DNA from: a virus
Lineage: Duplodnaviria > Heunggongvirae > Uroviricota > Caudoviricetes
Reading direction: 5' to 3' (one strand)
Length of the DNA stretch: 7,410 nt
Virus record (IMG/VR): IMGVR_UViG_2600254985_000002
Span: 1-7,410 of that record
This document shows, piece by piece, positions 320-6,902 of this stretch. Under the pieces are notes generated by a model, which made no database searches, was not told where the DNA came from, and saw only the letters and a program-made list of their open reading frames with translations. The position numbers and the translations under genes were made by a program. The first letter of the stretch is position 1; the number at the start of each line of letters is the position of its first letter.

Positions 320-348
320 TTGACAAATATAAAATAATTTGATATCAT
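320..348 (+). promoter_or_regulatory. sigma-A type promoter: TTGACA (320..325), 17-bp spacer, TGaTATCAT extended -10 (340..348)
   Basis: Read directly: consensus -35, 17-bp spacer, TG-extended -10, then GGAG RBS (361..364) and ATG at 371. Nearly identical to the promoter at 7045..7073. Confidence 0.6.
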
Positions 349-370: not shown

Positions 371-592
371 ATGAAAATTTACTATGTGGCACTAACAACT
401 GATAAAGACACAGTGGCTAAAAATTATAGCGGAAAACGATTATCTCTTTATACAAAAAAACACGAAGCTATTAAGACTTGTGTTTTATTAAATTATCAAT
501 GGGAGCTATTTTTCGGAAATGGAGCAAAAGAAGAAAAACCGTTCAAAGTTTATTGCGTAGAATCAGAGCCAATGGAGGTAACTAGTGACTAA
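371..592 (+). CDS. hypothetical small protein (73 aa)
   Basis: ATG start with GGAG RBS 7 nt upstream, immediately downstream of a consensus promoter. No recognisable motif. Confidence 0.6.
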   Translation: MKIYYVALTTDKDTVAKNYSGKRLSLYTKKHEAIKTCVLLNYQWELFFGNGAKEEKPFKVYCVESEPMEVTSD

Positions 593-660
593 ATTGAGAA
601 AAAACCAGGTGGCATTAGTCGTAGGATTAAAAAAAGATTATAAATTGAGAGGCATGAAAA

Positions 661-1554
661 TTGAATTTATTTGATAAAGTACAGACAGCTAAGCACTTAA
701 AAGAGCGTGAAGACTTAATAAATTTAAAAGATGACTGGCTTATTGATACGTTAATGCCAAGTTCACAAGCTGGAATACTTGTAGCTCCATTTAAGTCATT
801 TAAAAGCTCTCTAGCAATGCACATGGCTTTAATGGTATCGCAAGGGTTACCTTTTTTTGGTTATGATACAAAGCGAAGCAAGACACTATACATAGACAAT
901 GAAGATACTGACAGAGAGTTAAACAAAAGGCTTAGAAATAAAGATAATGCACCAGAAGACTTACATTTTTTGACAGGTGGAGAGTTTATGCTTGATGATT
1001 CGCACCACATGAACTTATTATATGAATACATTAAAGAAAATGATATAAAATTCGTGATCTTGGATAATTTAATGACAATGCTAAGAAATGGAGACATTAT
1101 CTACGGTAAAGACTTTGAACCAATGCTTAGGAGAATTACACGCTTAAAGTTACTTTTCCAAGACGTTACTTTCTTGTTAGTAGCTCATGCAAACAAATCA
1201 GCTTATGCAAACTCAATGGACGATAAAGCATATATGGTAAAGCCTAGTGACGCCTTGGGTGGTTCTACTCTAACAGCATGGGCAGAATTTATGTTAATGT
1301 TAAGCCCTAAACGTGGCAAGCATAACGACTTCTCTAAGTTATCAGTCAAAGCGCGTGGATATCAGTTTGACGATGATTTAAACTTTTCATACGTTGATTC
1401 AGTATTCACTTGCGTCAATAAATCAAAAAAAGAACCAGATAGCGAACTAGTGGAAAAAGTAAAGGCTGAAACTCCAATCGAAACGACGAAAGAATCGGCA
1501 CAGGCTTTCTTAGACTTAGCTAAAGAGAAAGGAAAAGTAACAGAAAATGAGTGA
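661..1554 (+). CDS. RecA-like P-loop NTPase (AAA_25 / DnaB-C-terminal-like); putative replication or recombination ATPase
   Basis: 297-aa ORF with TTG start and GAGAGG RBS (646..651). P-loop-like VAPFKSFKSS, Walker B-like KFVILDNL, and FLLVAHANK motif, in the spacing typical of RecA-fold helicase/recombinase cores. Family call is from motif layout by eye, not a search. Confidence 0.6.
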   Translation: MNLFDKVQTAKHLKEREDLINLKDDWLIDTLMPSSQAGILVAPFKSFKSSLAMHMALMVSQGLPFFGYDTKRSKTLYIDNEDTDRELNKRLRNKDNAPEDLHFLTGGEFMLDDSHHMNLLYEYIKENDIKFVILDNLMTMLRNGDIIYGKDFEPMLRRITRLKLLFQDVTFLLVAHANKSAYANSMDDKAYMVKPSDALGGSTLTAWAEFMLMLSPKRGKHNDFSKLSVKARGYQFDDDLNFSYVDSVFTCVNKSKKEPDSELVEKVKAETPIETTKESAQAFLDLAKEKGKVTENE

Positions 1555-2908: not shown

Positions 2909-3191
2909 TATTAAATTTGATGAAAAACAGCTAGAAGAAGTTGTGAAAAAAGTTACTGAAAAACTTAAAAAAGAGAAAGATTCAGATACAGCAAAGGAAA
3001 AAGTGTCAGTAATGTATTTAGAATTTAATGAAGCAAATCATGCAAGCGAGAAAGGTAAACTTTACTTTGGGCATGCTTTTCACACTTTGTCAAAAAAGTA
3101 TGCTTCGGAGTTTTATTTATCTAGTGAATCTGATTTGACAAAAGCCTCAGAGCTTAAAAGCCAAGGTTGGAGAGAAGAGGTTATCGAATGA
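2895..3191 (+). CDS. hypothetical protein (98 aa)
   Basis: ATG with GAGGAG RBS (about 2884..2889). Stop TGA (3189..3191) overlaps the next ATG (3188). No recognisable motif. Confidence 0.6.
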   Translation: METINIKFDEKQLEEVVKKVTEKLKKEKDSDTAKEKVSVMYLEFNEANHASEKGKLYFGHAFHTLSKKYASEFYLSSESDLTKASELKSQGWREEVIE

Positions 3192-3754
3192 GTGTATTTG
3201 AAGAACTAAGCGTTATTAATGTAAATGATAAGAAAAGCAAAAAGAATAATTTAGATTATCTTAGTTGGGCATATGCATGGTCTGAAGTTAAAAAAGTATA
3301 TCCTGAAGCTAACAGTAAAGTTTATGAAAATGAACAAGGGTTAAATTATCACACAGACGGTCGCACAGCATGGGTTAAGGTTGGTATGACTATTGAGGGC
3401 TTGGAGCACATTGAATACTTGCCTGTAATGGACTATCGTAACCAATCTATCCCAGTTGAAAAACTGACTTCTATGGACGTAAATAAAGCCATTCAGCGTG
3501 GACTAGTTAAGGCAATTGCTCGTCATGGTTTAGGGCTATATATTTATGCAAATGAAGATTTACCAGTTCTAACAGAAGAACAAAAAGAGCTTGAAGCAGA
3601 AAAACAACGACTTAGAGAGATTCAGCCACTTATAAAACGAGCTGAACAACTAGGATACCAAAATATTGACAGCTTGAAAAATAAGACTAAAAAAGAAATT
3701 ACCGACATCATGAAGATTTGGTTAGCACAGCAAGAAACAGAAAAAGGGGAATAA
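3188..3754 (+). CDS. putative phage single-strand annealing / recombination protein (Sak3/DUF1071-like)
   Basis: Track ORF begins at 3167, but ATG 3188 has RBS GGAGAGAAGAGG and an ATGA overlap with the upstream stop. Motifs LDYLSWAYAWSEV and AIARHGLGLYIYANEDLP recalled as typical of this SSAP family; position immediately upstream of an SSB-like gene is the classic sak-ssb arrangement. Family assignment is from memory. Confidence 0.5.
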   Translation: MSVFEELSVINVNDKKSKKNNLDYLSWAYAWSEVKKVYPEANSKVYENEQGLNYHTDGRTAWVKVGMTIEGLEHIEYLPVMDYRNQSIPVEKLTSMDVNKAIQRGLVKAIARHGLGLYIYANEDLPVLTEEQKELEAEKQRLREIQPLIKRAEQLGYQNIDSLKNKTKKEITDIMKIWLAQQETEKGE

Positions 3755-3758
3755 TTAA

Positions 3759-4118
3759 ATGGCAATCATCACAGTAACAGCACAAGCGAATGAAAAAAAT
3801 ACACGTACAGTAAGTACAGCAAAAGGCGATAAGAAAATTATTTCAGTCCCATTATTTGAAAAAGAAAAGGGATCTAACGTAAAAGTTGCGTACGGTTCGG
3901 CTTTCTTGCCTGATTTCATTCAATTAGGTGACACAGTAACGGTCAGCGGTCGTGTACAAGCCAAGGAATCAGGAGAATACGTAAATTATAACTTTGTTTT
4001 CCCTACGGTTGAAAAAGTATTTATCACTGATGATAATAGTAGTCAATCACAAGCTAAACAAGACTTATTTGGTGGTTCTGAACCTGTTGAAGTTGATGAA
4101 TCAGAACTTCCTTTCTAG
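3759..4118 (+). CDS. ssb: single-stranded DNA-binding protein (phage SSB-like)
   Basis: 119 aa with strong RBS (AAAGGGGA). Gly/Gln-rich flexible region followed by acidic tail ending DESELPF, matching the SSB C-terminal acidic-tip pattern (D-D-D-I-P-F type). Sits directly after the putative annealing protein. Confidence 0.55.
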   Translation: MAIITVTAQANEKNTRTVSTAKGDKKIISVPLFEKEKGSNVKVAYGSAFLPDFIQLGDTVTVSGRVQAKESGEYVNYNFVFPTVEKVFITDDNSSQSQAKQDLFGGSEPVEVDESELPF

Positions 4119-4130
4119 AAAGGTGGTTAC

Positions 4131-4346
4131 ATGTACACAGAAGAAGAGAGAGAGCAAATTATCGACATCGTGGATAAAATGAGCTTATTAAGACAAGACT
4201 TTGACGGAGCTTTCGCTTGGATCAAGGAAAACGTATCAATGCCATTTGACTTTGACGGAGAACAGCAATTTATATCAGAATTGAAGCAGTTAGTTAAAAT
4301 TAACGCTTTAAAGTTTGGTAAAATATATGAGGGAGTATTAAATTGA
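4131..4346 (+). CDS. hypothetical acidic small protein (71 aa)
   Basis: ATG with AAGGTGG RBS. Stop overlaps the next start. Confidence 0.6.
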   Translation: MYTEEEREQIIDIVDKMSLLRQDFDGAFAWIKENVSMPFDFDGEQQFISELKQLVKINALKFGKIYEGVLN

Positions 4347-5288: not shown

Positions 5289-5537
5289 ATGAAACAAAAA
5301 TACTTTAATGACAAAAGATATTGCCACTGCTTCGATATACCAATGAGTAATGGTTTAGGAGTTTGCAAAGATTGTAGAGGATACGTGAACATCTGTTATA
5401 GTTGCGATCGCTGTCTACACTGCTGGTTTACATCACAGGTTGAACTATTTACCGAATATGATGAACCTAAGTTGCTGGAACTTATAGAAAACTGGAATAA
5501 ATTTTACCAAACTAGAAAGACAATAAATAATGCTTAG
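5289..5537 (+). CDS. Cys-rich putative zinc-binding small protein (82 aa)
   Basis: Cys/His pattern C-H-C … CKDC … CYSC-x2-C-x-H-C within about 35 residues. Stop overlaps the methyltransferase start (ATGCTTAG). Confidence 0.6.
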   Translation: MKQKYFNDKRYCHCFDIPMSNGLGVCKDCRGYVNICYSCDRCLHCWFTSQVELFTEYDEPKLLELIENWNKFYQTRKTINNA

Positions 5538-6417
5538 TTTAGACGAGAAGAAAATCAGAAAAGGTAAACCTATTGGATTACCATACCAAGGAAGCAAGAA
5601 AAAGATAAGCAAGAAAATAGTTGAGATTATCAAACAGAACTTTGGCACAGACAAGCCGATATACGACATCTTCGGAGGAGGCGGAGCAATTACATCCGAA
5701 TGTATTTTAAATGGCTTAGAAGTATATTATAACGACTTAGACAAGGATATAACCAACGCTTTTGAACGAGTTATCTCTCAAGACCGTGAGTGGATTAAAA
5801 GCCTTATTGTTTCACGTACAGAGTTTACCGAGATTAAGGAGAAAGAAAACAAGACAACAGATGACTTTTTGAAGTTGCTGATTAACTCTTTCGGTAATAA
5901 AAAGAGAGATTATTTATATTCTAAAGAAATTTCAGATTTAAAATATAATCTAGCTAAAGAAATAATTGAAAAGCATGACGTTTTTAGTGGTTATAAACAG
6001 ACCAAAACATATAAGAGATCGATTGAAAAGTACAAACAACTTCAACAACTTCAACGACTTCAACAACTTGAACGACTTGAACAACTTCAACGAATTCAAC
6101 AACTTCAAAAATTAAATAAAATAAAAGCTACAAGCAAAAGTTATCATGCTTTTAGTGATGTTTCTGGAGCTATTCTATATCTTGACCCCCCTTATGAAGG
6201 AAGTCACCAAAAAGGTTATATTAATCAATTCGATAGTCAAGAGTTTTATGACTGGGCATTTGTAATGGCTAAAAATAACATCGTGATAATTTCAAGTTAT
6301 TCAATTTCAGATGAACGCTTTGAAGCTGTATATTCTTTTGACAAAGCGCGCAGCACTCTCCAAAGTGGAAGAAGCAAAAAAGAAAATGAGAAATTATTTA
6401 TGGTTAAAAACAGTTAA
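5530..6417 (+). CDS. N6-adenine DNA methyltransferase, D12/Dam-like (alpha-class motif order)
   Basis: N-terminal G-S-K-K-K-I region, FGGGGA AdoMet-binding motif (5671..5688), NDLDKDI block, and catalytic DPPY (6184..6195) in the order motif I … DPPY. Well-established family hallmarks. Confidence 0.85.
   Translation: MLSLDEKKIRKGKPIGLPYQGSKKKISKKIVEIIKQNFGTDKPIYDIFGGGGAITSECILNGLEVYYNDLDKDITNAFERVISQDREWIKSLIVSRTEFTEIKEKENKTTDDFLKLLINSFGNKKRDYLYSKEISDLKYNLAKEIIEKHDVFSGYKQTKTYKRSIEKYKQLQQLQRLQQLERLEQLQRIQQLQKLNKIKATSKSYHAFSDVSGAILYLDPPYEGSHQKGYINQFDSQEFYDWAFVMAKNNIVIISSYSISDERFEAVYSFDKARSTLQSGRSKKENEKLFMVKNS
6034..6114 (+). repeat. imperfect 9-bp tandem repeat (consensus CAACAACTT, about 9 units) inside the methyltransferase ORF
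   Basis: Units in order: aaacaactt, caacaactt, caacgactt, caacaactt, gaacgactt, gaacaactt, caacgaatt, caacaactt, caaaaatta. In frame, encoding KQL-QQL-QRL-QQL-ERL-EQL-QRI-QQL-QKL. Confidence 0.85.
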
Positions 6418-6474: not shown

Positions 6475-6594
6475 ATGAAAGATACAGTAAAAACTTTAAT
6501 GATGGTTGCAGGTGTCGGCCTTACACTTATCGCTATCACTTGGATAGGTATGCTTGCGACGTTGCTTATTGCATGGATTGGGGGTAACATCTAA
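6475..6594 (+). CDS. small hydrophobic peptide (39 aa, single predicted TM helix), not in the supplied ORF track
   Basis: ATG 6475 with AGGAG RBS 7 nt upstream and its own promoter. Translation MKDTVKTLMMVAGVGLTLIAITWIGMLATLLIAWIGGNI. Stop TAA (6592..6594) overlaps the next ATG (TAATG). Confidence 0.5.
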   Translation: MKDTVKTLMMVAGVGLTLIAITWIGMLATLLIAWIGGNI

Positions 6595-6902
6595 TGAATT
6601 ATGGTACAAATAAGCACTATGCCAATGAATACGGTATGGAACTTAACGAATACTTTAAACATCATTTTAACTATGAAGAGCTTGCAGGCTGGTATACAAT
6701 GCAGGTATTAAAGTATCTAGTGAGAGCTGGCAAGAAAGAGGGTGAAAGCTACGACAAAGACCGTAACAAGGCTTTAGACTATGCAGGAGAACTTGCTAAC
6801 TTAAGTAACGAGAATAAGCTTACAGAATACACTGCTGACGACATTATGAGCTTTGCACAAGATATAGCTGATGATTTCAAACAATGGAAAGGCGAAGAAT
6901 AA
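6594..6902 (+). CDS. hypothetical phage protein, possibly DUF3310-like
   Basis: 102 aa, translationally coupled to the small peptide gene. Pattern NKHY … VLKYLVRAGKK … DKDRNKALDYAGEL resembles what I recall of DUF3310 phage proteins; family name is from memory. Confidence 0.55.
   Translation: MNYGTNKHYANEYGMELNEYFKHHFNYEELAGWYTMQVLKYLVRAGKKEGESYDKDRNKALDYAGELANLSNENKLTEYTADDIMSFAQDIADDFKQWKGEE

Follow-up and report, generated by a model that had tools for sequence, protein, structure and literature searches.

A Skunavirus early helicase with an aromatic residue in place of the Walker A glycine

A 7,410-nucleotide stretch of phage DNA was analysed as a whole and is referred to here as the window. 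We conclude that the open reading frame at 661-1554 encodes the known, characterised early-gene helicase of Skunavirus, and not a recombinase. With good confidence we regard its product as a minimal NTPase of the RepA (RSF1010)/DnaB type, built around an AAA_25 domain with a working variant of the P-loop, and serving most likely as a fork helicase. The gene and its function were already known; the only new element is an unremarked and widespread form of the Walker A motif, in which an aromatic residue stands in place of glycine.

The window corresponds to the early-gene region of Lactococcus lactis Skunavirus (936-group) and is 98-99% identical to many phages, with BM22 being the closest match (98.7% identity over the full length). 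All of its ORFs of sizeable length are on the + strand (Table 1). The frame of the helicase gene is closed upstream by an in-frame TGA at 655-657, and the N-terminus of the protein agrees with the N-termini of its homologues. A Pfam search revealed an AAA_25 (PF13481) match over residues 25-180 (E=3e-22; 79.6 bits versus a cut-off of 27), and a match to phrog_1284 covered the whole profile (E=1.3e-146). The protein is the orthologue of GP46 (ATW69819.1) of Lactococcus phage vB_Llc_bIBBF13 (F13, sk1-like; genome MG253653), with 287 of 296 residues identical (97%, full length), the same APFKSFKSS loop and identical catalytic residues; the two differ by nine substitutions and one residue fewer N-terminally. 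Gene order in the window follows that of F13 gp46...gp41/gp40, and in both phages the gene precedes ssap and ssb at the same place in the early operon. The gene was found in 89 of the 90 936-group phages compared. In relatives (phages 63302, BM22 and others), it is annotated as 'DNA polymerase subunit', 'DNA polymerase' or 'AAA family ATPase'. The label 'DNA polymerase subunit', which persists in many GenBank records, is wrong and should read helicase; judging from the sequences, it probably arose from likeness to the helicase domains of polymerase fusions such as P0072 (see below). For the phage, little changes, as the window adds one more near-identical copy.

Table 1. Features of the window and of the helicase encoded in it.
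Feature	Position	Strand	Remarks
Putative sigma-70-like early promoter: TTGACA, 17 nt spacer, TG-n-TATCAT	320..348	+	11/12 consensus positions, TG extension
ORF	371..592	+	behind the promoter-like site 320-348
Small ORF, 29 codons	585..674	+	annotated in BM22; its end overlaps the helicase start
Ribosome-binding site GAGAGG	647..652	+	8 nt before the TTG start; read from the sequence
Helicase gene, 297 aa, TTG start	661..1554	+	orthologue of GP46 of phage F13
AAA_25 (RepA-like, RecA-fold) NTPase core, residues 25-180	733..1200	+	
Non-canonical Walker A/P-loop, A42-P-F-K45-S-F47-K48-S49-S50	784..810	+	F47 in place of Gly; K48 is the Walker lysine
Glu81, helicase motif H1a	901..903	+	invariant; aligned to RepA ...PAED and Rho ...IDER; in 137 relatives, E 129, D 8
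Walker B, F-V-I-L-D135 (residues 131-135)	1051..1065	+	D135 invariant; D in 136/137 relatives
Motif H3, H176-A-N-K179	1186..1197	+	relatives: H in 130/130 aligned, K in 125/129
Arg232, proposed arginine finger	1354..1356	+	invariant in the family; Arg233 of PMC8965321
C-terminal tail, residues 258-297: flexible acidic linker, then helix	1432..1551	+	
Sak-type single-strand annealing protein (context)	3188..3754	+	PF06378, 1.4e-37
Phage single-stranded DNA binding protein (context)	3759..4118	+	PF16773, 1e-60
gp38-like protein	4131..4346	+	family assignment
D12-class adenine methylase	5530..6417	+	family assignment
DUF3310 protein, SaV in the BM22 annotation (context)	6594..6902	+	PF11753

The helicase is the one early Skunavirus protein for which biochemistry has been published. 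GP46 was purified by Chmielewska-Jeznach et al. (2022; PMC8965321), and was reported to bind DNA, to form oligomers in SEC-MALS (the stoichiometry being left open in the paper), and to unwind 5'-tailed and forked duplexes in the 5'-3' direction, with a strict need for ATP and Mg, dATP and dTTP being partly effective, and with the highest activity on branched substrates. Host SSB, topoisomerase I and DnaK/DnaJ, as well as phage GP23, GP28 and GP32 (DUF3310), were recovered with GP46 in a pull-down (PMC8965321). The protein was assigned to the RepA cluster with a catalytic set of Lys49, Glu82, Asp136, His177 and Arg233 (PMC8965321), which correspond to K48, E81, D135, H176 and R232 of the window protein. 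The catalytic site was called complete; the missing Walker A glycine goes unmentioned, and the words 'glycine', 'mutant' and 'ATPase activity' have no occurrence in the text (PMC8965321). Unwinding was assayed with 0.1-2 uM protein versus 1.5 nM DNA for 30 min, with an optimum at 5 mM ATP (PMC8965321); because of this large excess of protein and the 5 mM optimum, the specific activity of GP46 looks low. A literature search found no follow-up work on GP46, and the helicase is absent from a 2026 review of lactococcal Abi systems. A first-pass annotation of the window, made from the sequence, had offered a divergent but active ATPase as one of two readings, and this reading is backed by the published data on GP46, a 97%-identical protein with the same loop.

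A glycine preceding the Walker lysine is normally required for P-loop geometry. The first-pass annotation had described a P-loop lacking this glycine, and such a loop is indeed present at residues 42-50 (APFKSFKSS). No canonical Walker A was found: the pattern [AG]x4GK[ST] had no match in the protein, nor in a six-frame translation of the window, and the three GK dipeptides of the helicase are followed by D, H and V, respectively. A profile of 26 homologues, reading 'GlvvaPsKsFKSs' in this region, was aligned to Rho GLIVAPPKAGKT and to RepA GALVSPGGAGKS. These alignments place F47 on the Gly of GK[ST], and K48 and S49 on the Walker Lys and Ser/Thr. The Rho and RepA matches are individually weak (E about 0.05-0.07), and reaching these two proteins in the PDB required the family profile; a single-sequence phmmer search against the PDB returned spurious ubiquitin-like matches only. 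Since the direct PDB matches are weak, the P-loop register rests mainly on the AAA_25 match, on the pattern of invariance, and on the link of a relative, P0057, to RepA (direct match, E=3e-8). The Rho loop, APPKAGKT, shows that neither Ala at loop position 1 nor Lys at position 4 is out of the ordinary. The sole true departure from the canonical motif is thus the change of Gly to Phe directly before Lys. Conservation in homologues rules out chance as the source of the motif. Motif H1 of SF4-like helicases was not found in its canonical form (Gly before Lys-Ser/Thr), Phe being present there. Glycine at this position is a general feature of P-loops and does not set SF4 apart from other families; its loss is taken here as a variant within the RepA/DnaB-type family, and not as an exclusion from it. 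A literature search on AAA_25 helicases and Walker A yielded the F13 paper and one unrelated review, with no discussion of a loop missing the glycine, and the copy of the PDB searched held no solved structure with an aromatic-K-[ST] loop, the nearest being the G-type RepA.

The remaining motifs of the helicase are retained. Among 26 aligned homologues, down to 37% identity, K45, K48, S49, S50, E81, D135, H176, K179 and R232 are invariant. The glutamate of motif H1a is the catalytic glutamate of RecA-fold helicases. The H1a (Glu), H2 (Asp) and H3 (His) residues of SF4-like ring helicases are present as E81, D135 and H176, and the Walker B-like FVILD and the H-x-x-K motif pointed out in the first-pass annotation were recovered at residues 131-135 and 176-179, with D135, H176 and K179 invariant. 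The H1a Glu was aligned with both RepA and Rho, while the Walker B and H3 stretch was aligned to RepA only in a non-significant second domain. The H3 His of RepA is a sensor of the gamma-phosphate, a role carried over to H176 by inference, and the proposed arginine finger is placed on a different strand than that of RepA (PMC8965321). The R232 region has pLDDT below 50 in the AF2 model, and the majority of the distant relatives have no aligned residue at this point.

The residue before the Walker lysine was tabulated in 49 family sequences, a set with 42 clusters from a search of 5.8 billion proteins, several of which stand for hundreds to thousands of sequences. It was F in 27, M in 18, Y in three, L in one, and G in none; K45, K48 and S49 were invariant, and S50 was present in 48 of the 49. 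The family includes two very different Skunavirus alleles (ca. 44% identity) and a Ceduovirus (c2-like) homologue (ca. 46%); the change, which the first-pass annotation had proposed to follow through the homologues, extends across the lineage. A profile search run exhaustively over 1.84 billion representatives yielded 20,727 matches at E<=1e-3, and the best 150 were tabulated. In the 137 non-family proteins among these 150, the residue before Lys was F in 53, Y in 41, G in 22, M in five, H in four and K in four, and never V, I, T or P; the best 150 are biased towards the loop of the query itself, and these shares should not be read as values for the whole of AAA_25. The same 137 proteins have Lys, Ser/Thr and Glu/Asp in 137/137, the Walker B Asp in 136/137, and the H3 His in 130/130 aligned. 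Glycine loss is lineage-wide and extends to many AAA_25 relatives. In the P-loop 'nest', the position before Lys is in a left-handed backbone conformation, and the lack of beta-branched residues or Pro before Lys fits this.

Aromatic-loop AAA_25 domains occur in several replication architectures: they are fused to Prim-Pol and PriCT_1 (P0051, P0057), to Toprim and a DnaG zinc ribbon (P0054), or to a RepB-type primase (P0059, P0066). Two metagenomic proteins, P0072 and P0076, combine in single polypeptides a RepB-primase, an AAA_25 domain with an APPKSYKS loop, a 3'-5' exonuclease and a family-A polymerase, a layout that parallels the apicoplast PREX enzyme. P0057 has the loop APPKSFKT and an N-terminus resembling the pRN1 ORF904 prim-pol, and a protein of a cultured Clostridium perfringens phage (P21) has the loop GQPKVFKS. 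Because of these fusions, a working motor is expected in the aromatic-loop domains. G-type and aromatic-type loops interleave: the core of the G-type P0147 is 51% identical to that of the Y-type P0090, and a rough neighbour-joining tree of 181 sequences, 21 of them G-type tips, requires 13 changes between G and non-G. This interleaving, together with the strict conservation of catalytic residues, argues that the loop types are functional and interchangeable, and that the glycine was not lost by decay. The broader proposal, to which we give about an even chance, is that aromatic-K-[ST] is a fully functional alternative Walker A of a large clade of RepA-like helicases and primase-helicase fusions, repeatedly interconverted with GK[ST]. 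The glycine of GK[ST] is taken to be almost invariant, yet an experimentally active helicase and many related replication proteins have Phe, Tyr or Met there while keeping every catalytic residue. If the proposal is correct, the 'invariant' glycine would be dispensable in a RepA-like RecA-fold context, and the bulky residue might tune nucleotide affinity (the GP46 optimum being 5 mM ATP) or couple the P-loop to the subunit interface.

The helicase family profile also matches about 147 Microbacterium phage genes labelled 'RecA-like DNA recombinase'. The loop was read in one of them, gp34 of phage Endor (L006; 565 aa, E=1e-21), where it is the Rho-like APPKVGKT. The label of these genes may be a mis-annotation of an AAA_25 helicase.

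An AF2 model based on 26 sequences had a mean pLDDT of 67, with 72-94 over core blocks 51-180; the P-loop (residues 41-50) had 56, the lowest value within the core. Foldseek matched the model to KaiC, DnaB and RadA at a probability of 1.00, and the best structural match was the plasmid replicative helicase RepA. The RecA-like core fold is closest to ring helicases. No match to a RecA/Rad51/UvsX family profile was found, nor was the fold closest to these recombinases. Thus, of the first-pass description as a RecA-like ATPase and second recombination-type protein, the RecA fold stands, as an AAA_25 ring-helicase core, and the recombination-type assignment does not. The putative annealing protein placed at 3188 by the same annotation is of the Sak type.

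Besides GP46, three systems are closest to the phage helicase. RepA of RSF1010 (PDB 1g8y, hexameric; ca. 15% identity, direct profile E-value 0.07) differs in having a canonical GAGKS loop and in lacking the acidic C-terminal tail. Rho shares the pattern A-P-x-K-x-[G/F]-K-[T/S] after a G-hhh strand and, with Ala first and Lys fourth in its loop, is an active RecA-fold ring motor, but it keeps the Gly before Lys, is an RNA translocase with an OB-fold N-domain, and has marginal overall similarity (E 0.05). The primase-helicase(-polymerase) fusions of phages, plasmids and metagenomes (among them P0051, P0054, P0057, P0059 and P0072) share with the phage helicase its AAA_25 core, its conserved E, D, H and K residues and, in many cases, the aromatic-K-[ST] loop. 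They consist of several domains, while the Lactococcus phage protein is a stand-alone helicase module. No characterised examples of these five were found in a literature search.

The following mechanism would account for helicase function. The protein would assemble into an oligomer, probably a ring, which we infer to be hexameric, and would bind a 5' single-stranded tail. Hydrolysis of ATP in the presence of Mg at the subunit interfaces would then drive movement in the 5'->3' direction and open forked DNA. K48 and S49 would hold the beta/gamma-phosphate and Mg, E81 would activate water, D135 would hold Mg, H176 would sense the gamma-phosphate, and R232 of the neighbouring subunit would act as the finger. 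The P-loop would be a working variant that binds ATP and has, directly ahead of the Walker lysine, a bulky residue without beta-branching (here Phe) instead of Gly. In the phage, the protein would most likely be the replicative fork helicase, opening forks for the host replisome. No polymerase or primase family was matched among the scanned ORFs of the window, and since the module holds no recognisable polymerase or primase, Skunavirus phages probably depend on the replisome of the host. Genes for an annealing protein, an SSB and a Holliday-junction resolvase are present in these phages, whose replication module is described in reviews as a black box.

An alternative role for the protein would be that of a recombination or branch-migration helicase acting with Sak, SSB and the Holliday-junction resolvase in recombination-dependent replication, much as RadA/Sms extends D-loops; we consider it unlikely. 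Its location speaks for such a role, as the gene is in the same early region as the SSAP and SSB genes, which follow ca. 1.6 kb downstream, with a second promoter-like site (see below) in between. RadA is among the top structural matches, GP46 works best on branched substrates (PMC8965321), and the related Microbacterium genes are annotated as recombinases. Against this, RepA, a replicative helicase, is the best structural match, the fusion partners of the nearest non-family relatives are primases and a family-A polymerase, with no recombination domains among them, and Pfam detected no RadA zinc-finger or Lon-like domain in the helicase. The replicative and recombination roles can coexist: once loaded at a D-loop, a 5'-3' ring helicase is itself a replicative one.

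The other reading offered in the first-pass annotation, that of a catalytically impaired paralogue acting as a loader or organiser, conflicts with the invariance of all catalytic residues and with the ATP-dependent unwinding reported for the orthologue. In its fuller form, a RecA-fold protein of this kind would be a nucleotide-gated loader, organiser or origin-binding scaffold for a host DnaC-type helicase, and the published unwinding would be weak or due to a contaminant. The absent Gly of GK[ST], the large protein excess, 5 mM ATP and lack of mutant controls in the GP46 assays, and the recovery of host replication proteins in the pull-down would be in line with it. Pseudo-enzymes usually lose catalytic residues, but K48, S49, E81, D135, H176 and R232 are invariant here, and the catalytic residues also persist in hundreds of relatives that share the loop, including the primase-helicase-polymerase fusions, where a motor is expected. 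Moreover, G-type and aromatic-type loops swap between proteins of ca. 50% identity, and unwinding by GP46 failed when ATP or Mg was omitted. We therefore regard an impaired protein as quite improbable. Contamination of GP46 with an E. coli 5'-3' helicase is likewise given a low probability, and it is the conservation pattern that lowers our rating of both contamination and a loader. Finally, the motif could be misaligned, with K45 as the true phosphate-binding lysine or with a canonical P-loop elsewhere. Lys-Ser occurs twice in the loop (KSFKS), and the family shows no variation at K45 either. However, the protein lacks any [AG]x4GK[ST], and K45 is aligned to Rho K181 or to a RepA Gly, with K48 aligned to the Walker Lys; in the distant relatives the K48 position is always K (137/137), while position 45 varies (K/G/A/S). 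The residue before K45 would be non-Gly as well (F/M/S/Q). K45, with S46, was accordingly rejected as the phosphate-binding lysine on the strength of the Rho/RepA alignments and the K48 invariance, and a misaligned motif has in our estimate hardly any chance of being correct. The preferred reading is thus still that of an active fork helicase with a variant P-loop.

The helicase gene differs sharply between otherwise closely related phages. When the window was compared with phage RMP6 (L004, 1501-2448), the flanks at 311-~690 and ~1440-2093 were 98-100% identical at the DNA level, while ~700-1430, inside the helicase gene, had only about 25-55% DNA identity, and the two helicase proteins were 44% identical. 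The RMP6 allele (316 aa) has the loop GSEKSMKSS, which is likewise without Gly before Lys. From this comparison, the helicase core appears to behave as an exchangeable cassette. The two Skunavirus alleles hardly differ in the acidic tail and terminal helix (ESAQAFLDLAKEKGKVTENE), and G291 and E295 of the tail are near-invariant across the family, the Ceduovirus homologue included. The tail is reminiscent of T7 gp4, which has an acidic tail, and it may serve for the docking of a partner, with SSB and the DUF3310 protein as candidates. The presence of F13 GP32 in the pull-down and of a DUF3310 protein at 6594-6902 is hinting at a link between helicase and SaV, where GP32 and the window protein are connected by the shared domain and by gene position.

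The promoter-like site at 320-348 probably drives, as judged from its sequence and position, an operon of ORF 371-592, the small ORF and the helicase gene. A second strong sigma-70-like match (12/12, with TG extension) was observed at 1955-1983, before ORF 2015-2401, and the two matches suggest several early transcription starts. No intrinsic terminators were found within 1-2100, and an Rfam scan of the window returned no RNA family. A search for origin-like repeats upstream of the helicase gene (1-700) yielded short two-copy matches of 10-16 nt only, none of them convincing.

Two further observations concern other genes of the window. ORFs 2398-2685 and 2495-2908 are in different frames and overlap by ca. 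190 nt, and each has a strong match to its own phage family (phrog_1632 and DUF7413/phrog_1449, respectively); the true start of ORF 2495-2908 may be further downstream, since phrog_1449 spans only residues 50-136. The methylase ORF contains an in-frame tandem repeat at 6035-6108 (9 nt x 8.2 copies, 84% matches), which encodes a QQL/QRL run in the middle of the D12-class adenine methyltransferase, possibly as a variable linker or coiled segment.
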